Source: Octopus vulgaris
Taxonomy: Eukaryota
Direction of reading: 5' to 3'
Length of the DNA: 64,000 nucleotides
Assembly (NCBI GenBank): GCA_951406725.2
Contig: OX597833.1
Coordinates: 69,316,001 to 69,380,000, forward strand
The stretch's first letter is position 1, and the number at the start of each line of letters is the position of its first letter. Under the pieces are notes generated by a model. It was not told the origin of the DNA and did no database searches. It worked only from the letters and a program-made list of their open reading frames with translations. Shown one piece after another: positions 12,739-48,600 of this stretch. The translations under genes were made by a program, and so were the position numbers.

Positions 12739-14035
12739 ATATGTCAATACACACACACATATGTCAATACACACACACACTGCCATTACACACATATGTC
12801 AATACACACACACACACTGCCATTACACACATATGTCAATACACACACACACACTGCCATTACACACATATGTCAATACACACACACACACTGCCATTAC
12901 ACACATATGTCAATACACACACACACTGCCATTACACACATATGTCAACACACACACACACACTGCCATTACACACATATGTCAATACACACACACACAC
13001 TGCCATTACACACATATGTCAATACACACACACACACTGCCATTACACACATATGTCAATACACACACACACACTGCCATTACACACATATGTCAATACA
13101 CACACACACACTGCCATTACACACATATGTCAACACACACACACACACTGCCATTACACACATATGTCAATACACACACACACACTGCCATTACACACAT
13201 ATGTCACACACACACACACACTGCCATTACACACATATGTCAACACACACACACACACTGCCATTACACACATATGTCAATACACACACACACACTGCCA
13301 TTACACACATATGTCAACACACACACACACACTGCCATTACACACATATGTCAATACACACACACACACTGCCATTACACACATATGTCAACACACACAC
13401 ACACACTGCCATTACACACATATGTCAACACACACACACACACACTGCCATTACACACATATGTCAATACACACACACACACTGCCATTACACACATATG
13501 TCAATACACACACACACACTGCCATTACACACATATGTCAACACACACACACACACTGCCATTACACACATATGTCAATACACACACACACTGCCATTAC
13601 ACACATATGTCAATACACACACACACTGCCATTACACACATATGTCAATACACACACACACACTGCCATTACACACATATGTCAATACACACACACACTG
13701 CCATTACACACATATGTCAATACACACACACACACTGCCATTACACACATATGTCAATACACACACACTGCCATTACACACATATGTCAACACACACACA
13801 CACACTGCTATTACACACATATGTCAACACACGCACACACACTGCCATTACACACATATGTCAATACACACACACACTGCCATTACACACATATGTCAAC
13901 ACACACACACACACTGCCATTACACACATATTTCAATACACACACACACTGCCATTACACACATATGTCAATACACACACACACACTGCCATTACACACA
14001 TATGTCAATACACACACATACACACACACAGCCAT
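12739..14035. repeat. Minisatellite of ~36-40 bp units atatgtcaa(t)(ac)n-tgccattacacac, about 35 copies
   Basis: Directly visible. Unit length varies through the internal (CA)n, and the three long ORFs here are artefacts. Confidence 0.95.
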
Positions 14036-14564: not shown

Positions 14565-14698
14565 AACGTGGAAGTTGTGTCAGAGCACAGAATACTGTGT
14601 TATTTATCTTGAGAGAATTTCGCATAAAGACTCGTGCTGAGGAGACCCTCTCACGATAAATTACGCAATATTCTGTGTTCTAACACAATCTGCACGTT
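14565..14698. repeat. 51-bp imperfect inverted repeat (MITE-like hairpin)
   Basis: 14565-14615 vs reverse complement of 14648-14698, about 42/51 identical by hand alignment. Confidence 0.8.
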
Positions 14699-19719: not shown

Positions 19720-20362
19720 CCTTTCTACTATATTCACAAGGCCTGAAACTTATGGAGAGGGGACGAGTCGATTACATCGACCCCAGTACTCAACTGGTAT
19801 TAATACTTAATTTATGGAGCCCGTAAGGACGAACGGTGAAGTCGACCTCGACGAGATTTGAACTTAGAACGTAAAGAAAGACTTGATAACGCTAAGTAGT
19901 TTACCCGGCGTGCTGACGTTGCTTATTTCTTTATTGCCCACAACGCCGGGTAAACTGCTTAGCGTTATCACGTCCTTCTTTACGTTCTAGGTTCAAATCC
20001 CGCCGAGGTCCACTTCACATTTCGTCCTTATGGGCTCCATAAATTAAGGTATCGGTATGACAACTTTCGATAAAATAAGGACAAGGTGAGAATTGAGATC
20101 GATGTAATCGACTTACCTGTCCACCGAAATTGCTGGCCTTGTGCCAAAATTTGAAGCCAGTATTAATGAAATATAAGACAGCGAGCTGGCAGGATCGTTA
20201 ACATACCGGACAAAATATTTAGCTGCATTGTCACGCCGAGTTCGATTTAGCCTTTTAATCATTTCGGTGTCAATAAAATAAGCACCAGCCGAACACCGGA
20301 GTCGATATAATCGACTTTCCTCTTCCATTAATATTACTGGCCTTGTGACAAAATTTGGAACC
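19720..20362. mobile_element. Cluster of decayed F2 SINEs including a local inverted duplication
   Basis: F2 motifs on - (19720-19920) and + (20065-20362). 19806-19911 is mirrored at 19943-20048. Confidence 0.8.
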
Positions 20363-20896: not shown

Positions 20897-21380
20897 TTTT
20901 TTTTTTCTAGTTTCAGCTCAGAGCTGCGGCCATGCTGATGCACCGCCGTTTTGTGCTACACTGTTATTACGACGAACCTCGTCTAATATGTGGCACTTGG
21001 TGAAGAATGGAGTTTGATACAGCTACTCTCATTTGCATCTCTTGCCGTGAGGTAGGTTCATCTGGGACTCTTGACAGGAAGATGTCCAACTTTGATTTAA
21101 AAACCGCTACATCTACTTTGTGCAAGTTCCTCAGACTCTTTGGGAGAATATTAAAAAGCTGTGTGCCCTTGAAACTCAGGCTGTTGCAGGAGCTGGTCCT
21201 GAAGCGTGATGGCATTGCTGGGATCTTTGGCACTATGCAGTGTCGTCCCGTTCTAGCATTAGTGTAGCTTACAATGCCAAAATTTGGCACAATTCCTTCC
21301 AGGATCTTCCAGACATATTACTGCATACCTCTCCCGTCTTCTCTCCAGGGAGTAGAGTCTTAGCTGTTTCAACCTGTTTC
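20897..21380 (-). mobile_element. 5'-truncated CR1-clade LINE 3' end (ORF2 C-terminus, 3' UTR, A tail)
   Basis: Translation RLKQLRLYSLERRRERYAVI/VWKILEGIVPNFG..QLFNILPKSLRN..FKSKLDIFLSRVPDEP, typical of the post-RT region of CR1-group ORF2. One frameshift; ends in A10. Confidence 0.85.
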
Positions 21381-24953: not shown

Positions 24954-25470
24954 GAAATATTAAAATTACTAAGTCTCTCTAAAGGAGATTACGGCAGCGT
25001 TACTGGATATTAATGGTTATCGCCATACTAATATGGTAGTCCATAAATATAAAACTAAAGCGTGTGTGTGTATGTATTTAAGCATACATACACAACTATG
25101 TTATGTATATATATATATGTGTGTATATATATATATATATAATATTAGGGAGTAAATTCAAACTTACAGGGAAAATTTTCATCTCTAATTTAATATATAT
25201 ATATATATATATATATTTCGTTTTTTGATTTGGTTTGCAAGATTCTTTATGTGAGTTCGTGTGTTGAAGCTTATTGTGTTGTGTCTGGGGAGAGTAATTT
25301 TCTTTTCGTGCCTTATAATGTAACACGCCCACTGGTAAAACTTCCACTGCTTTCTTTTTTTATTTTAATAAAATTTTCGTTGCGTTTTGCAACATTTTCA
25401 ATAGTCAAAACTACTGAAAAGTTTGCAAGAAGCAACGAAAAGTTTTTTGACAGTGACCTCTGAAGAAGGA
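24948..25470. mobile_element. Patchwork of pLTR-like fragments between (TA)n tracts
   Basis: 25141-25195 (aatattagggagtaaattcaaacttacagggaaaa..tctctaatttaata) matches both termini of the 35307-35673 element. An isolated CTGAAGA-agg at 25460 may be a truncated HHR 5' half. Confidence 0.55.
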
Positions 25471-33048: not shown

Positions 33049-34080
33049 CATACATATATGTATATATGTGCACACACATGCATATACATACACTCATACA
33101 CACAAATACACACACACACACTTATATCAATCGAAAGTATAAACAGCTAACGCATATTTTAAAGTTATGTATATGCTTCGCTAGAAATGTAGTTTTGAAT
33201 TATATTTCAATGAAATATTTCGGGAAGGAAGGGACAATTCCACTGTTATAATACTTCTGTCATCAATCTTCTTTTGCATACTTGGAAGTGTCACAAAATA
33301 TACTAAGGATAAACGTTCCCCTTTGTGCCATATATGCGACCAGCAGTTAGACATTTAGGAACCTGATGTGAGCGTAGTCACTCACAATGGGTTACTAATG
33401 ATACCAGTTGCATTTCATGAATGCACTTTTCGCAGTAGCTTATTCATAGGAGAAAAGAAAACATCCATAGCGTTTATCAGAGCTTTTAAAACAGTCAGAT
33501 GAAAAGAAGAGAAAAATCTTTTGAAGGGAAAGTGGGCCTGGCTCTTTTCAATGAAGAGAATGCAGCATAATCAGCGAAGAGAAAAGGTTTGGAGTTTTCA
33601 TTTGAATAGCGTATTATGTCACCTACCGACGCGATTGTACACAAATTTGATCTCCACAATCGTTTGGTAGAAATTAGTCGTTAAAATAGTACGAGGATGG
33701 AATATAAGCGAACACGTAGCAGGGAACCGATTTTAACTCCCAAAATTATGCACGTTGCAACTGTGTATTGTTCTAGAGACAGAAATGCATACAACAGTAT
33801 ATGGGTATATGTTTGTGTATGTGTGCATATGTATATGTATGTATATATATATATATATATATATATACTGAGTGAGAGAGGGATTTAGAGGATATGTTAA
33901 CCTCTGAAAGGGATGGTTACATACAATGGAAAACTGGTTTGACGAAAACAATTCAAGACGGTACTGTAGCCATGGATGCAGTCACATAACTGAAACAAGT
34001 AAAAGAATAAAAGAATATATAAATATATACACAGACAAGCATACACACAAACACACACAAATATATATATATATATATAT

Positions 34081-34598
34081 ATTAATTTATAAAAATATGG
34101 TAAAGTAAAAGAATTCACTTTACCACACACCGAACTTTTCCGAAATAGCAGCCAAAAACTTGGCTATTTCTTCAACTGCAAATAAAAGTCTCCAGACAAT
34201 GCATACTCAGAAAAATAACTCACATAGGAATAAGGGAAAAACAATGAAAGATCACATCCATATACGATACCCGAGGACAGTCTGTTTCTGGATTTGTGGG
34301 TAAAACGCCACTTTTCCTTCATCAGCTCAGAGATTTCTTTTGATTTAGATTTGAAAATACTAAGAATCAAACATACCCGTCCGATATCTGTAACATCGGA
34401 CAAACTATGCCAGACATCCAGTACTAGCGAATCCAAAAATACGAATGAGATCTATTATTCTCCCTGTCCGCCCACGTGAGTCATAGAGCATTCCATTTCT
34501 ACAGAGGTAAAAACTGCAGTTTAAATTCTTGGAGTTGAAGAAATAGCCAAGTTTTTGGCTGCTATTTCGGAAAAGTTCGGTGTGTGGTAAAGTGAATT

Positions 34599-34601
<3 letters not shown>
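34081..34601 (-). mobile_element. HHR-bearing insertion in (TA)n with a perfect 69-bp inverted terminal arm
   Basis: 34109-34177 is the reverse complement of 34533-34601; (TA)n on both sides; HHR on - at 34270. Confidence 0.85.
34270..34331 (-). ncRNA. Type I hammerhead ribozyme motif
   Basis: tctgag-CTGATGA-agg aaaa gtgg cgttttac ccac aaat cca-GAAA-cagactg-TC-ctcggg. 6-bp stem I with GU pairs, GUC triplet. Confidence 0.8.
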
Positions 34602-34664
<63 letters not shown>

Positions 34665-34816
34665 CAGTAAAACAATTAAGATTCAAGTGAGTTCCAATGA
34701 ATTCATATGAATGTGGTACTTAACTTAGAAGCACCAGAAATCTTTATGGTATTAACCATAAAATAATGTGGGGTGATTATAAACAAGAAAAAAAAGCAAC
34801 AATATTGGATTAGTTG

Positions 34817-34905
34817 TTCAGTACAATTGTTTCATACGAAGAACATATTTATTAAAAGCTGCAAATATTGCATCAAATACAAATGTCCTGTATTCATCAG
34901 CCAAA
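34817..34905 (-). ncRNA. Type I hammerhead ribozyme motif with extended stem II
   Basis: tttgg-CTGATGA-atac aggacat..tgcaa tat ttgca..atgttct tc gtat-GAAA-caattg-TA-ctgaa. Canonical core, palindromic CAATTG. Confidence 0.82.
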
Positions 34906-34963
34906 ACACATATGAGTTTTCCAAAGGGGATGTTGTCACCTCAAACATCTCAGAAACTTTATT

Positions 34964-35162
34964 TGTTCAATTCGGAATAAACAAGGAATCTTAGTGCCTG
35001 CGGATAAAACTGGTAATCTGTATCGAATAGATTACACTCTTTATAGCAAGCTAATTAAGAAGGAACTCAACTCCAAATATAAAATTAATACAAAGAAAAA
35101 TTTGAAAAAAATAAACCTAGAAATGAAGGAAATTATGAAAAGATACAATTTAACGGATAGAT
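34964..35162 (+). pseudogene. Penelope-like element reverse transcriptase N-terminal fragment
   Basis: [56 protein letters not shown]. The (P)ADK motif followed by Y..Y..L..YK is characteristic of the region preceding PLE RT motif 1. Confidence 0.75.
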
Positions 35163-35219
35163 ATGCATATATATATATATATGTATATATATATATGTAT
35201 ATATATATATGTATATATA

Positions 35220-35306
<87 letters not shown>

Positions 35307-35309
<3 letters not shown>

Positions 35310-35673
35310 TATATTAAATTAGAGACAAAACCACTATTATGCAAATCAAACAAAGAAAGACTTAAGCCAATACATAAAATAATTTATATAAATTTAACAT
35401 AGTTTAAAACTCGCCAAGAAGGTTTTGAAACCACCTGAAGAATGTCTTAAAGATGTGCTGACACGAAACGATCGTAGTGGTTATTTATAATTGTTAAATT
35501 TTAATTTATATAAATTATTTTATGTATTGGCTTAAGTCTTTCTTTGTTTGATTTGCATAATAGTGGTTTTGTCTCTAATTTAATATAATAGAATATTTTA
35601 CTATAAAATTGGATTCAATCCTGAATCTGATTTTTCCCTGTAAATTTGGATTTATTCCCTAATATTTATTATT
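35307..35673 (+). mobile_element. HHR-bearing insertion in (TA)n with an ~88-bp inverted arm
   Basis: ~35307-35394 is the reverse complement of ~35501-35590, with the HHR in the spacer. Confidence 0.85.
35429..35482 (+). ncRNA. Type I hammerhead ribozyme motif
   Basis: aaccac-CTGAAGA-a tgtc ttaaagatgtgct gaca c-GAAA-cgatcg-TA-gtggtt. Perfect 6-bp stem I, palindromic CGATCG. Confidence 0.85.
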
Positions 35674-35706
35674 ATATATATATATATACAAGCATACACA
35701 CACGCA

Positions 35707-36478
<772 letters not shown>

Positions 36479-37146: not shown

Positions 37147-37589
37147 TATAATTATGAATTTGAGAAAAGAAAATGTCCTTAACAACTTATAAAATTTATT
37201 AATATTTATTCTTTACATGCGTGTAGTCTGCGCGCGTGGCTGAAGTAGATTGCATCGTCATCATGCGGTCTCGGTTTCCATTTTGCTATGAAGTGTTTCA
37301 GTATAAATATTTTTTTTATAGATTCGTTTTCACCGACGCCCCTTCGTGGAGTGGTGGTGGTTCCATGTGCATAGACATGCAATGTGTGGATTGTCCTTTT
37401 TCACGGTCAAAGCGAATCTATAAAAAATATTTATACTGAAACACCTCATAGTGAAATGGAAACCGAGACCGCATTATGACGATGCAATCTACTTCAGCCA
37501 CACGCGCAGCCACACGCATGTAAAGAATAAATATTAATACATTTTATAAGTTGTTAAGGACATTTTCTTTTCTCAAATTTATAATTATA
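37147..37589. mobile_element. MITE/foldback element with ~190-bp imperfect TIRs
   Basis: 37147-37335 vs reverse complement of ~37403-37589; ends tataattat..ataattata. Confidence 0.8.
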
Positions 37590-37615: not shown

Positions 37616-37667
<52 letters not shown>

Positions 37668-37869
37668 CAATAATAATTCTCTAAAAGAGATATAGACAGT
37701 AACTGCTCGATAACATAAGGGACTAAAGCCATCTGAATATGGCTAGGGACAGGGCAGGGTGGTGGGGGTGTTACTGTTGCATTTAGCCCCAGGCGAACAT
37801 CGACGTCACCAGAAAGGCTCGACACCGTCACGGTGTCCTTATCCCTGCAAAGGGAGGTAATTCCCCGAT

Positions 37870-37943
37870 GAAGCGGAAACCACACACGGACCATGGTTTC
37901 AAGGTGTATTGCCTATCGTCGGCGTGTGGTAGGCCTCCGCTTC
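37870..37943 (-). ncRNA. Hammerhead motif (mirror copy of 38260-38333)
   Basis: Reverse complement of the + copy. Confidence 0.7.
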
Positions 37944-38259
37944 CTCGACGAATTCTCACTCTGCAGGATATTCATATATAGATTTTCAAGCAAAATACAT
38001 TTGCTGATTTCGAAAATCTGTTCGAAAGCAATAATAATTCTCTGTTCGCCTGGGGCTAAATGCAACAGTAACACCCCCACCACCCTGCCCTGTCCCTAGC
38101 CATATTCAGATGGCTTTAGTCCCTTATGTTATCGAGCAGTTACTGTCTATATCTCTTTTAGAGAATTATTATTGCTTTCGAACAGATTTTCGAAATCAGC
38201 AAATGTATTTTGCTTGAAAATCTATATATGAATATCCTGCAGAGTGAGAATTCGTCGAG

Positions 38260-38333
38260 GAAGCGGAGGCCTACCACACGCCGACGATAGGCAATACACC
38301 TTGAAACCATGGTCCGTGTGTGGTTTCCGCTTC
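38260..38333 (+). ncRNA. Type I hammerhead motif with U4C core variant
   Basis: cacacg-CCGACGA-t agg caataca cct t-GAAA-ccatgg-TC-cgtgtg. Stem I is extended by gaagcgga/tccgcttc. Confidence 0.7.
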
Positions 38334-38488
38334 ATCGGGGAATTACATCCCTTTGCAGGATAAGGACACCGTGACGGTGTCGAGCCTTTCTGGTGACGTC
38401 GATGTTCGCCTGGGGCTAAATGCAACAGTAACACCCCCACCACCCTGCCCTGTCCCTAGCCATATTCAGATGGCTTTAGTCCCTTATG

Positions 38489-38532
<44 letters not shown>

Positions 38533-39310: not shown

Positions 39311-39312
<2 letters not shown>

Positions 39313-39435
39313 TTTCCTTTCATCAGCACAGAATAATCGCTTCGCTAGAGATGGCGAAGTATATACTTTACAATGTAACACACACTGTCGTCATTTTTAA
39401 CCAAGCGATTAATTCTGTGCTGACGAAGTGAAATA
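39311..39435. mobile_element. Small MITE-like element with ~32-bp TIRs
   Basis: tatttcctttcatcagcacagaataatcgctt vs aagcgattaattctgtgctgacgaagtgaaata. Confidence 0.65.
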
Positions 39436-40368: not shown

Positions 40369-40594
40369 AAAGAGGGGGTTAATATGAGAGATGCGATACA
40401 AAAACAGGGGGTTAATATGAGAGATGCGACACAGAAAGAGGATGTTAATATGAGAGATGCGATACAAAAACAGGGGGTTAATATGAGAGATGCGACACAG
40501 AAAGAGGGGGTTAATATGAGAGATGCGATACGAAAACAGGGGGTTAATATGAGAGATGCGACACAGAAAGAGGGGTTAATATGAGAGATGCGAC
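40369..40594. repeat. 33-bp minisatellite with alternating A/B units (66-bp higher order), about 7 units
   Basis: aatatgagagatgcga recurs every 33 bp, alternating tacaaaaacag and cacagaaagag. Confidence 0.92.
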
Positions 40595-40674
40595 ATGAAC
40601 GTATAAACGAGGCCGTGTACAAACACAGACGCACACATTGAAAGAAGTGGAGCAATACAGGCAAGGTAGGAACG

Positions 40675-44025: not shown

Positions 44026-44958
44026 TATATATATATATATATATACATATATATTATATATATATAATGCAGGTACAGAAGTGTACCTACACGTGTGCTG
44101 TTGGCGATTTCTTCTTTTCTTTCGTTGACTATAGCCCTTTCTCCTTTCCAGCGGGCTTGCACGCAGTGTCTGTTTACCAAATTCGCTCAGAAGTTATTAG
44201 TCTGACTAGAACTATAACAGATGACATTTACTGCAGATGGAGACCTGTATTACAACTAAGTCCGAAAGTACGTGGTGCCAAATCAAGTTAATTAGACACT
44301 CTATCGCCATACTATGATGTGTGAAGTTTCATTCGTTGAAACCAACCGAATTTATCTTCCCGTTCTTCAGGGAAAGATAGTGATACCCCTAACCCAGTGT
44401 TTAACACCAAAACCTGACGTCTGATACTCTCTAGACTATCCACATGCTGAAAGATTTGCGAAGTCATTTCAAGTGAGGATAACACCCTGAAATTACAAAT
44501 CTGGAAGGCCATGAAAAAAATTCTTTAGCACTGTTCTTGAATATGCATGTGTGAAATTGGGATGCACCGAGACTGGAATATCGAATTCATCAATCAACAA
44601 AAATCTGTTAGTTCTCATCGGCTCAGAATAAAATCTGAAATTTGTTTTCTCCCTATCTTTGGTCAATCGCTCAATATATCTATCAATCAGTGTATCTAAC
44701 TACCTATATCTTCCTATATCTATCTTTCGATCTACATTTTCCTACGTATATCTATATACTTATATATAGGTATATATATTTATATATATTTACATATATT
44801 TTCTTATATCCACCTACATAAATCTATATTTGTCTATATACCAAGTTATCAAACTACCTACCTATGTATCAACTAACCTACCTACCTGTCCGTTTGTCTA
44901 GCTGTCTGTCTTTCTATTTATCTATCTATACCTTTCTCTCCGTATATATATATGTATG

Positions 44959-45019
<61 letters not shown>

Positions 45020-45025
<6 letters not shown>

Positions 45026-45310
45026 TTAGAGATAAAACCACTATTAGGCAAAACATATATATATATATATACATATAAAAGATAATGGTGTCATTGAGAC
45101 CCAAAGGCGTCAGGTAATGCTGAATAGGTGCTATAGTCAGACCTTGGTTAAGTTCTAGATTCGGTAATATTGCGAATAAAGGGTTCAACGTTGGTTCTGT
45201 GTCAGCGTGTGTATATATGAATTTTTTTTTGCCTAATAAGATAAAACAGCTGTAAGACCCTCTATCTATAAATACTCTAATATCTATACAGCCTTGATTT
45301 TTTTTATCTT
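45020..45310. mobile_element. pLTR-like fragments in (TA)n
   Basis: ttaaattagagataaaaccactatta matches 35314; aaacagctgtaaga at 45244 matches the HHR 3' half at 5736. Confidence 0.55.
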
Positions 45311-45339
45311 ATATATGTATATATATATATATATATATA

Positions 45340-45605
45340 TAATGTAAAGTATAGAAGCCATCTTAACATGGCTAACCACATAGGGGAGGGGGTGTTACTG
45401 TAGCTTTATAGCCCCAGGAGATCGTCGTCTCCAGCTGGCTTTAGACGCCATTTCAGTGCCCTTTTAGTTGGAGACGACGATCTCCTGGGGCTATAAAGCT
45501 ACAGTAACACCCTCTCCCCTATGTGGTTAGCCATGTTAAGATGGCTTCTATACTTTACATTATCGAGCGATTACTGTTTCAATCTCATTCTGAGATTTAA
45601 TAATG

Positions 45606-45606
<1 letters not shown>
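45340..45606. mobile_element. Inverted insertion in (TA)n, diverged relative of the 37667 unit
   Basis: 45340-45433 is the reverse complement of 45469-45562; shares aagccatct..atggcta, ggggtgttactgt and tagccccagg with 37726-37793. Confidence 0.85.
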
Positions 45607-45643
<37 letters not shown>

Positions 45644-48600
45644 TTAATAAGGGTGAGAGAATTAGATACTAATTTAATAGTATATCTATTCTACACCAAG
45701 TGGCCTAGTGCTCCGAGAAACCTGGATTATTATAATATTTTATAATATATTATAATATTTTTACAAAATAAATATAAGAGAGTGGTCACTATATGGCTCA
45801 CTCTAGCACCAGTTAATCCAAAAGGTTTCAACCACAAAAATACATGTTTCCCATGAAAGTCAGTACGATTGTTAGCTCACACGGACAGGGCAAATAAAAA
45901 ATAACAAAAATACAGATTATTTTGGGACAATTGTTTCGCTATTAATGAATTAAATGTAATTTTACTTACAAAAAAATCCACTTGTAGCTCCTCAGCCAAA
46001 ACTATCTGGATGAAATCCACATATATATACATATTAGCTTCTCTCATTTTATCTGTATATATAAATGTATAAAAAGTATATACTGGTTTGGTGTTTTCAG
46101 TCTGCGGTGCATTGCAGGGTACATATGTATAGCTATTTTCTCGCCTGTACATATACATATGGACATATATATATACATATACATATTTCTAAAGCCAAGT
46201 CATTCAATAAACTGGGATCATTAAAATGAGTGCCAGACTAACTATAGGCACAGACATATATTTGCCCGACTCCCTTGACGTTGATGATACAGTATTAATC
46301 GGCTGAAATAATAATATAGCACATTACATTGTCAATCGATTGTGAATAAAAGAACCGTATCTATTAATTCTAACAAATTTGTGGGAAATGATGCAATTAT
46401 TTAATTGTAAGGAAATTATGATAACAAGTTGTTCGTTTGCCAAACAGAAATCTTATTTTCAATTTACATTTTTAAGGTAATATAGTTTACTAGTGTATTT
46501 CACAACAGTTTCATAGTTACTTATATAATACGACAGGAGAATATATATGGCAGACATATTACTACCAGCCGAAATGACGGGTGGTTTGTGTCACATTTTA
46601 CAGAAGAAGAGGTCTAGAGACTGGTTGTGGAAAGTTGTCGAGACTCAATGAGGTTGATCAATAAGAAATATAACCAAAAATATTAGTGGCGTGACCATAC
46701 TGCTTCATGGTGTTTAGAGTTTTACTGTACAATGAAGAATGAAGTGTTCTAAGTAAAATATTTGAGTGTACTCGAGGGAGATTGTTTTTATCTGAAATCA
46801 ATGTCTTTAGCTGTCTTATAAAGTAATTTTTAATTCAAATATTTTGTGTACCTCGCATTTGCATTCGTAATAGATTTGACTTCTCTCCGTCACGTTACAT
46901 ACACTGAAAATATACATACAAAACAAAAAATCTTTTCTAGAAATTTCGAGAGTAATATAGTTCAGTTGCCCAGAATATATTTGAAATCACCCCTCGGATT
47001 TATTGGAGTATTTACGAGTTGGGTTGTATTTGGCTTGCTAACTACCGCTGCATTCCCAGGCGATTCAGAGCTGTCCTCTCTTCACTTACTTACGCATATC
47101 AATGTATTACTGTCCCTTATATCCAATATCACCCATCTTGTATGTAGTCATCCCAAATATCGTACCTTTTCTATTATAGAGGACCTCTCTTGGTGAGAAC
47201 ACATTTAACAAAGCTAAGATCGCTTTCCAAAACACTCCCTTCGCCCCCAAATCATGCTGACAGCCAACAAAGCTGAAATGAAGCTACAATATAGGACGAC
47301 TCTTGTATCTTGGATGGTACTCATACACGCGCCAGCGGCCTGAATTTTAACGAGGTGATAGCTACTCATCTCAATGGCATTTTATCACTAAAGGGCACAC
47401 CCTAAACTCTGAACGAGAGTTGAGCTTTTCTCTCTGTAATTTTATCGCTATTATTACAACCTCTTCTCGTAAGAGTTGGTTGCATTCGTACCTCCACAAT
47501 TCTGGTACCGCTAAATAACTGGCCTCTTCTCTTTTCACTTTTAGTGCATCAAACACATTCCCCCTTTAAACTAACCGAATCACACATCCCCTAGGACATC
47601 GTCCTTGTGGAATATCCTACCTGCCTGCATCTTACCTGCAGGTGTTGCCTTGTCACAATTTAAATGAAACATCTCTCTTATCAATACCAATGGGCAGATA
47701 GAGCTTCCAAGGGTTACAGGCTCCGTTCCATCATTCATATTTATCAGTTAAATGTAAAACAATTTTTTGTACCTATCTCTAGCTTTAAGTTCCGCACACA
47801 AAGGTACATTAACTACTTTTTGCCTATAAATGTTTTTTTTCGCAAGCTTCGAGTCCCCTGCAATATAAACTCTAGGTACTGACTTAAATAGAAATTCTCG
47901 GAGACGCCGTAATAGCTATATTCTGAAGTACTTAAAAGACAAAATATAAAAAAATAGATTTTACTCTAACAAAACACTGGTTTATATACAGTAAGCCAGA
48001 ACATGGAATCTTAATGATTATAGGTTCTGGGTCTATAATTTAATGTATCGCCTTCTCTCTATCAATATAATTTTTAATGCGAAGCTGAGCATATTGTTAT
48101 AGAAACAACTCATTGCCTCTTTACAAGAGAGAAATAGACATGTTCTAAATTAATCGATAAAGAAAAGACTTAAAATCTTTAATTTGTTAATAAACATGAT
48201 GGCGGTAGCTGATTCTTTCTGAGAAATATAAGTAAAGGAATAATTACATGACAAACAACAAGAAATCAGGAATACGAACGTTTGATACTATGGACTGTAA
48301 ACCATCACTGGAATTATTTTAAAACATTGCGCAGTATATAGAGAAGACATTTCTTTGGTAAGTATGCTATTGAGAAATAGAAAAAGAAAGAGAGAGACAC
48401 ATACACACACACACACACACATATACAGAGACATAGAAGAGACAGTTACTAATATGTTGACGAGATAAGTACTGAAAGAAAGTTGTAAATATATCAGAAA
48501 TATATTGTTGAAGAACAATAGCAAAGCAAGACAAAGAAAGTCTACTTATTTCTAAATCACCAAAGTATTAGTATTACAACAAAAGCCACATGTGTCCTGT

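Follow-up and report, generated by a model that had tools for sequence, protein, structure and literature searches.

The stack analyzed here very probably arose when hammerhead-bearing Penelope-like elements (PLEs), or non-coding derivatives of such elements, inserted into one TA microsatellite in three independent events, each with 5' truncation. The known biology of PLEs that target TA and carry hammerhead ribozymes (HHRs) explains the locus. Penelope-like families of Octopus vulgaris have recently been active, according to the available part of one report (PMC13282606), and the locus contributes PLE and hammerhead families so far unlisted in this repeat-rich animal genome. These families escape Rfam, the peptide encoded in the second unit escapes Pfam, and the locus accounts for hairpin repeats liable to be misfiled as MITEs. 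In the literature, which was covered in part, we found no account of hammerhead PLE stubs that lie stacked within a single microsatellite, and repeat libraries may hold the families.

Our evidence is drawn from the window (the whole 64-kb stretch of DNA that was analyzed), from proteins and metagenomes in public collections, from four sequencing runs and from the literature. The window is AT-rich overall and rich in microsatellites and dispersed repeats, a composition that is reminiscent of cephalopod genomes. Three TA-bounded units follow one another (Table 1), and all joins between them pass through TA tracts of 60-150 nt. The initial annotation had described three different HHR elements in one (TA)n, which the layout and the hammerhead scans bear out; we assign the units to different families given that the best local match between any two of them has an E-value of only 0.26. 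The (GATA)n noted there as about 700 bp long after the stack is also present, at the length given in Table 1. An exact 14-nt direct repeat brackets the whole stack (34036-34049 and 35689-35702), and a long target duplication may have left it behind; it has only two exact matches in the window and three more with one mismatch, and its context is of low complexity.

Table 1. Features of the stack and related loci (window positions, except for the last line, which names loci of Hydra relatives)
Feature	Position	Strand	Remarks
Left (TA)11 tract	34061..34082
Unit 1, whole	34083-34600		TA-bounded
Unit 1 sense copy	34083..34528	-	445 nt; no Hydra coding match
Unit 1 tail	34083-34105	-	23 nt; this end only
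Unit 1 arm	34106-34181	-
Unit 1 structured core	34182-34528	-
Unit 1 type I hammerhead, predicted	34267..34335	-	core 34325; GUC triplet; model E 0.006
Unit 1 inverted copy of 34106-34181	34529..34604	+	76 nt, 97%, head-to-head
(TA)30 tract between units 1 and 2	34601..34660
Unit 2, whole	34661-35161		TA-bounded
Unit 2 hammerhead arm	34661..34925	-	3' end of very abundant repeat family (run contigs)
Unit 2 type I hammerhead, predicted	34813..34910	-	core 34900; GUA triplet; model E 0.003
Junction letters between arm and RT piece	34926..34935		about 10 nt
Hydra-clade PLE ORF fragment, putative	34936..35161	+	75 open codons around DKT; ends in TA
Interrupted (TA)n between units 2 and 3	about 35162..35306
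Unit 3, whole	35307-35672		TA-bounded
Unit 3 inverted copy of 35503-35590	35307..35394	-	88 nt, no mismatch, head-to-head
Unit 3 sense copy	35395..35672	+	hammerhead; arm 35503-35590
Unit 3 type I hammerhead, predicted	35425..35485	+	core 35435; GUA triplet; model E 1.6e-6
Unit 3 tail	35591-35672	+	82 nt; this end only
Right flank: TA, short CA/TA mix, TA, GA	35673-35763
(GATA)n	35764-36478		about 715 bp; 3' of right-flank TA/CA/GA mix
Fourth hammerhead element	45640-46020	-	core 45995; R1 match 45917-46005
GAGCACT loci	L003, L010, L017, L025, L031, L033, L047, L051, L052, L055, L057, L065, L066, L072, L073, L075		3' tails

A descriptor scan of the window found the CTGANGA...GAAA...GTH core with three stems, in the type I arrangement, once in each unit and at one extra position (45995, minus strand). 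Cleavage is predicted after 34276, 34822 and 35476 in units 1, 2 and 3, respectively; stem II is weak and stem III palindromic in unit 1, and stem II is long in unit 2. When the 1378 non-repeat bases were shuffled 1000 times under a Markov model, the same scan gave one hit in 12 shuffles and two hits in none, and 20 shuffles of the entire 64 kb gave 0-2 hits each. We also built a covariance model, R1, solely from 32 hammerheads at other organisms' loci; the stems covary in its training alignment, in which 89% of cells are paired. Applied to the 64 kb, R1 returned four matches at E<0.01, namely units 1-3 and the 45917-46005 match, and the next had an E-value of 0.47, all of these E-values being rough. 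Rfam gave 0 matches at the gathering score in the window and no hammerhead among its 30 weak matches. Given that the minimum-energy folds of the isolated motifs of units 1-3 differ from a hammerhead (z of 0.16, -0.16 and -0.26), the cleavage activity of these predicted ribozymes as monomers is uncertain.

The coding sequence lies in unit 2, where the peptide ILVPADKTGNLY sits in an open frame (34934-35164) on the plus strand, opposite to the unit 2 hammerhead. A full HMMER search returned 68 protein matches (best E-value 1e-7, 41% identity), which at the position of the window's DKT read DKT in 59, DKS in 6, another triplet in 3 and DKG in none; the window peptide itself carries ADKT, that is, DKG modified to DKT. 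One of these matches (P0056, from Apostichopus japonicus) starts like the published Hydra-1_Ajap, as judged by eye. An alignment search yielded 290 relatives, 120 of them among the matches listed, and the 80 of these with 660-780 residues formed our full-length set. Within that set, drawn from the matches listed, [AS]DK[TS] was present in 78 sequences, YxDD in 74, the CxCx5C linker in 54 and R[WM][KR] in 49. The window copy is without those parts of the PLE ORF that would hold the clade's RWK motif, CxCx5C linker and CCHH-free endonuclease. A profile built from the 80 sequences matches at an iE of 1.9e-15 over positions 78-168 of 701, of which the ORF fragment takes up about 92-168; the remainder of the ORF does not lie elsewhere in the window, where the next best profile match has an iE of 0.08. 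Searching proteins through a word index with the short peptide as query retrieved nothing among 123 candidates, and Pfam gave no meaningful match for the peptide or for 11 relatives. The Hydra clade is defined by DKT, the CxCX5C linker, canonical HHRs and (TA)n insertions (PMC8557442), and Octopus bimaculoides has a listed Hydra family in the supplement to that paper, both available in part. From its motifs and the identities of its matches over 75 residues, the peptide is assigned to the N-terminal section of the RT of a Hydra-clade PLE, and the Penelope-like RT proposed in the initial annotation thereby gains a putative clade. Placement in the Naiad clade was rejected, because Naiad has a DKA motif and no canonical HHR. 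When units 1-3 were compared with 79 Hydra loci at the DNA level, the sole useful similarity was a stretch of 26-31 nt at the DKT codons.

We mapped unit 2 with the contigs of 4 sequencing runs out of 24 listed. The arm and the RT piece are repetitive in all four, and the arm is deeper by one to two orders of magnitude; in run X1 the summed depth, which is not a copy number, was about 1e4-2.5e5 for the arm and 2e2-9e3 for the RT piece, and the other three runs showed the same pattern. Loose contig ends in the four runs place the divergence of other arm copies behind 34924-34925, and contigs show other arm copies terminating in TA at about 34790 or 34700. Since the arm copies continue differently at the junction, the join in unit 2 is not the usual form of the arm family. 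Among the contig pieces listed for the four runs, none crossed the junction or joined the two parts, and as far as those pieces show, the arm-ORF linkage is confined to the window copy; 2301 further pieces stand outside them. The initial annotation had tied the HHR arm to a Penelope-like ORF, with the arm as the ORF's own pLTR: a PLE RT is indeed joined head-to-head to the arm, but the pLTR identity failed to find support, with no bridging piece among those listed and arm copies that diverge at the junction. Within the junction letters, an 8-nt stretch matches the arm family at the break in reverse complement (noticed by eye and post hoc) and is possibly a short fold-back.

The hammerhead arm of unit 2 is antisense to the ORF, and the sense 3' end of the ORF copy is missing. 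Our orientation sample comprised 79 metagenome loci of Hydra relatives, with 63 ORF ends that have at least 150 nt of flank. The descriptor scan placed a sense hammerhead within 350 nt of the ORF end in 39 of the 63 and an antisense one in none, and R1 matches in the 79 loci were in the sense orientation in 71 of 73 cases, a count that includes the 32 training sequences. Given the sense orientation of hammerheads near the relatives' ORFs, the unit 2 arm is genuinely inverted with respect to the ORF, with the two pieces joined by their 5' ends. The arrangement of unit 2 is a published PLE structure and no new kind of fusion; the 3' part that the ORF copy lacks would either have gone through a subsequent deletion or not have been copied at all.

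Units 1 and 3 have the form of EN+ PLE insertions, with a type I hammerhead close to the 3' end, a head-to-head inverted 5'-truncated copy and a tail on one side. In PLE insertions, a 5'-truncated copy in inverse orientation and a tail at a single end are frequent, and Penelope-13_HM is annotated with an inverted copy and an antisense HHR (PMC8557442); head-to-head is the most frequent junction (PMC3846280), and two RT start sites produce the tail of a PLE studied in vitro (PMC11167929), as stated in the accessible parts of these sources. Unit 3 has short relatives next to TA elsewhere in the window: a 50-nt copy at 25141-25193 contains both of its ends, and one of them is found again at 45020-45055. 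The near-perfect arms suggest that units 1 and 3 are young. Neither unit has a coding match to the PLE profile in the window; from their TA target and hammerhead form, we infer that Hydra proteins may have mobilized them. A MITE reading of these units was rejected, given that their arms are asymmetric, with a tail at one end only, and enclose a hammerhead.

In the mechanism that we propose, a PLE protein with RT and GIY-YIG endonuclease would nick (TA)n and copy its RNA from the 3' end, as published for PLEs. Copying would end early, and a shorter inverted second copy would join head-to-head, leaving a tail at one end such as that seen in units 1 and 3. Unit 2 would have arisen through the same junction type, here between the inverted 3' arm and a 5'-truncated ORF, the ORF copy being short of about 530 codons and of its 3' end. 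Stacking would follow because the target is common to several families and persists to the left and right of each insertion. Counterpoints to this PLE reading are the tails, which measure 23 and 82 nt compared to the published 30-40, the lack of a coding match in units 1 and 3, the arm-ORF linkage confined to the window copy of unit 2 and the GAGCACT motif of Hydra 3' tails (described below), which all three units lack.

For the 347-nt core of unit 1, the fold z-score is -4.14 when the hammerhead strand is folded and -0.51 for its complement. Its degenerate stems hold 19 G-U pairs on the hammerhead strand versus 1 on the other (10:0, p 0.002; 9:1, p 0.02), and six control palindromes in the window split 18:15 between strands. 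Given that DNA decay should be symmetric, the one-sided G-U pairs point to selection of the unit 1 fold at the RNA level, as judged from one copy. Among 24 matched Hydra 3' regions, 4 had a sense z of -3.3 or below and 1 had the one-strand pattern, at a rough 14 shuffles each. Animal retrozymes are HHR-bearing, 150-450 nt long and proposed to be PLE derivatives (PMC7229834; bioRxiv 10.64898/2026.07.22.740005; both available in part), and unit 1, as a non-coding RNA within this range with a type I HHR, fits their size and, in its predicted fold, their structure. Retrozymes are recognized by tandem repeats with at least two hammerheads; unit 1 is a single copy in the window, with one hammerhead only and no tandem repeat at this locus, and we therefore do not class it as a retrozyme.

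Clustering was evaluated within the window on 8 TA-bounded insertions, picked by eye, and 30 TA tracts, in a window selected for its cluster. The 8 insertions fall in 4 of the 30 tracts, with a P of 0.002 under uniform targeting. The corresponding P values were 0.025 for a rich-get-richer model, 0.027 for targeting proportional to tract length and 0.55 for length squared, with the caveat that present tract lengths partly result from insertion. Feedback is indistinguishable from a preference for long tracts, because the two probabilities are about equal (0.025 and 0.027). The initial annotation held that each insertion leaves TA on both sides and so creates new targets; TA-bounded insertions do cluster, but length preference fits as well as the creation of new targets. 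At other organisms' loci, chosen for their Hydra ORF, 11 TA tracts have good flanks; combined scans placed different PLE/HHR units to either side of 4 of these (L004, L012, L036 and L065), and a single regex alone found hammerheads on both sides in none of the same 11.

Several further elements occur in the window and in the relatives' loci. A second TA stack (44943-46020) holds a unit 3 stub at 45020-45055, an unassigned 250-nt piece, a palindromic element at 45342-45607 and the fourth hammerhead element, whose fold is confined to the ribozyme strand (z of -4.2 versus 0.8) and whose stem III loop is common with unit 2. The 45342-45607 element forms one TA-bounded family with 37666-38490, with nested inverted repeats (334 nt, 99%) and no R1 match. 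Further large palindromes lie at 37147-37589, 39311-39435, 19806-20048, 14565-14698 and 25367-25448; the second of these has a CTGACGA core at 39420 that failed the hammerhead scans, and the third is built from a dispersed repeat. Minisatellites are present at 12753-14023 (37 nt, 35 copies) and 40369-40595 (33 nt, 7 copies), and an open frame at 20967-21317 on the minus strand resembles the C-terminal end of a LINE protein. Among Hydra 3' tails, a GAGCACT motif is conserved about 80-170 nt past the hammerhead core in 16 of 27; it is often repeated just ahead of the ORF start, with a complementary GCTC before it, is present in the 45995 element and absent from units 1-3, and is a possible cis signal for the RT. 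An inverted repeat is present in 13 of the 79 Hydra loci, and inverted ORF pieces lie 5' of Hydra elements at the starts of three contigs (L009 3-85, L013 1-132 and L061 1-186).

We considered that unit 2 could be a chimera whose arm and RT piece derive from different families, joined either through template switching or when a deletion removed the DNA between two adjacent insertions. The lack of a bridging piece or joint among those listed, the arm copies that diverge behind 34924-34925, a depth that falls about a hundredfold across the junction and about 10 unassigned junction letters all speak for such an origin. However, head-to-head polarity is expected from one PLE insertion, and no TA lies between the pieces, unlike what two separate TA-targeted insertions would leave; the contigs are moreover too short for the at least 1.6 kb from the RT start to the 3' end, and the 2301 pieces outside those listed weigh on the same side. 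A chimera is therefore unlikely in our estimation, and the arm and RT piece probably share a family origin, given the polarity and the missing TA. Misassembly at the TA repeats is a very improbable cause of the stack, or of the ORF cut-off at 35161: the unit joins all lie in TA tracts of 60-150 nt and the contig check covered unit 2 alone, but the arm-RT and head-to-head junctions are free of microsatellite, the 14-nt repeat around the stack suggests that its outer flanks belong together, and similar stacks occur in independent assemblies.

A different reading, compatible with three independent PLE insertions, alters what unit 1 is. Instead of an inert pLTR stub, it may be a non-autonomous RNA of the retrozyme kind whose rod-like fold is under selection; TA-targeting PLE proteins would move it in trans, and it would insert as a single copy. 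The 45640-46020 element and the arm of unit 2 might be of the same nature. The fold and G-U bias of unit 1 on the ribozyme strand, the even split of the controls, the single Hydra 3' region of 24 with a one-strand pattern, the excess depth of the unit 2 arm in all four runs and the size, HHR and proposed descent of animal retrozymes are consistent with this. Conversely, a lone hammerhead and no tandem copy offer no route to a circle from the locus, the window contains only one copy of unit 1, and 4 of the 24 Hydra 3' regions also reach a sense z of -3.3 or below; for the arm, 5' truncation alone yields surplus 3' ends, and summed contig depth is not a copy number. We offer this reading tentatively, as one that is probably wrong. 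Turning to the target itself, the TA tract could be a self-reinforcing landing pad, in which insertions lengthen or multiply TA targets and occupied sites thereby attract more. Clustering that is poorly fitted by uniform targeting (P 0.002) and better by rich-get-richer targeting (P 0.025) agrees with such feedback, as do the second stack at 44943-46020 and a plant DNA transposon with an average of 9 TA units at empty sites and 15 per side at filled sites (PMC4486113, available in part). The length-proportional (P 0.027) and length-squared (P 0.55) models do without feedback, though, and the window was chosen for its cluster, the 8 insertions were picked by eye and tract lengths are partly products of insertion. 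Feedback of this kind is conceivable here, though we lean against it.

Beyond three hammerhead PLE insertions, a broader hypothesis, which is speculative and quite improbable as a whole, is that unit 1, the 45640-46020 element and perhaps also the arm of unit 2 belong to a set of hammerhead RNAs in this genome that are SINE-like, non-tandem and selected for their fold at the RNA level, and that proteins of Hydra-clade PLEs would move into TA. Their insertions would enlarge TA and lead to self-reinforcing stacks, and head-to-head joining would let the hitch-hikers gain pieces of the master ORF. If true, this would provide a monomeric, microsatellite-targeted counterpart of retrozymes, a direct link from PLE machinery to non-autonomous hammerhead RNAs and a testable feedback between insertion and microsatellite growth. 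The PLE-hammerhead RNA link has so far been argued from co-occurrence and pLTR similarity, in the available part of one source (bioRxiv 10.64898/2026.07.22.740005).

Collectively, the locus most resembles Hydra-clade PLEs as described in the portion of PMC8557442 at hand (Penelope-13_HM, Hydra-1_Obim): it shares DKT in the N-terminal part of the RT, a canonical type I hammerhead close to the 3' end whose stem III is short and palindromic, a (TA)n target and a 5' inverted, 5'-truncated copy with an antisense HHR, and unit 2 has the layout of Penelope-13_HM. It differs in that unit 2 keeps 75 codons only, its stem II is much longer than in the listed Hydra HHRs, and units 1 and 3 are without a coding part; Hydra-1_Obim differs by eye from unit 2 in both protein and HHR and is a different family. 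Like EN+ PLE insertions (Adineta vaga Penelope, PMC3846280; Poseidon PAc, PMC11167929; each seen in excerpt), the units show a head-to-head inverted repeat, a one-ended tail and an AT-rich target, although here the tails are 23 and 82 nt, a target duplication is unreadable inside TA and unit 2 is without a sense 3' end. Metazoan non-LTR retrozymes, as far as the available text of PMC7229834 and bioRxiv 10.64898/2026.07.22.740005 describes them, are likewise non-coding, low in GC and 150-450 nt long with a type I hammerhead, whereas each unit here lies in TA as one copy with an inverted arm and not as a tandem repeat. MuTAnT, a TA-targeting Mutator-like element of Medicago (PMC4486113, in part), also inserts into (TA)n and is bordered by TA left and right, in longer tracts than at empty sites, but it is a DNA transposon with true terminal inverted repeats and without ribozyme or RT, unlike the units of this stack.
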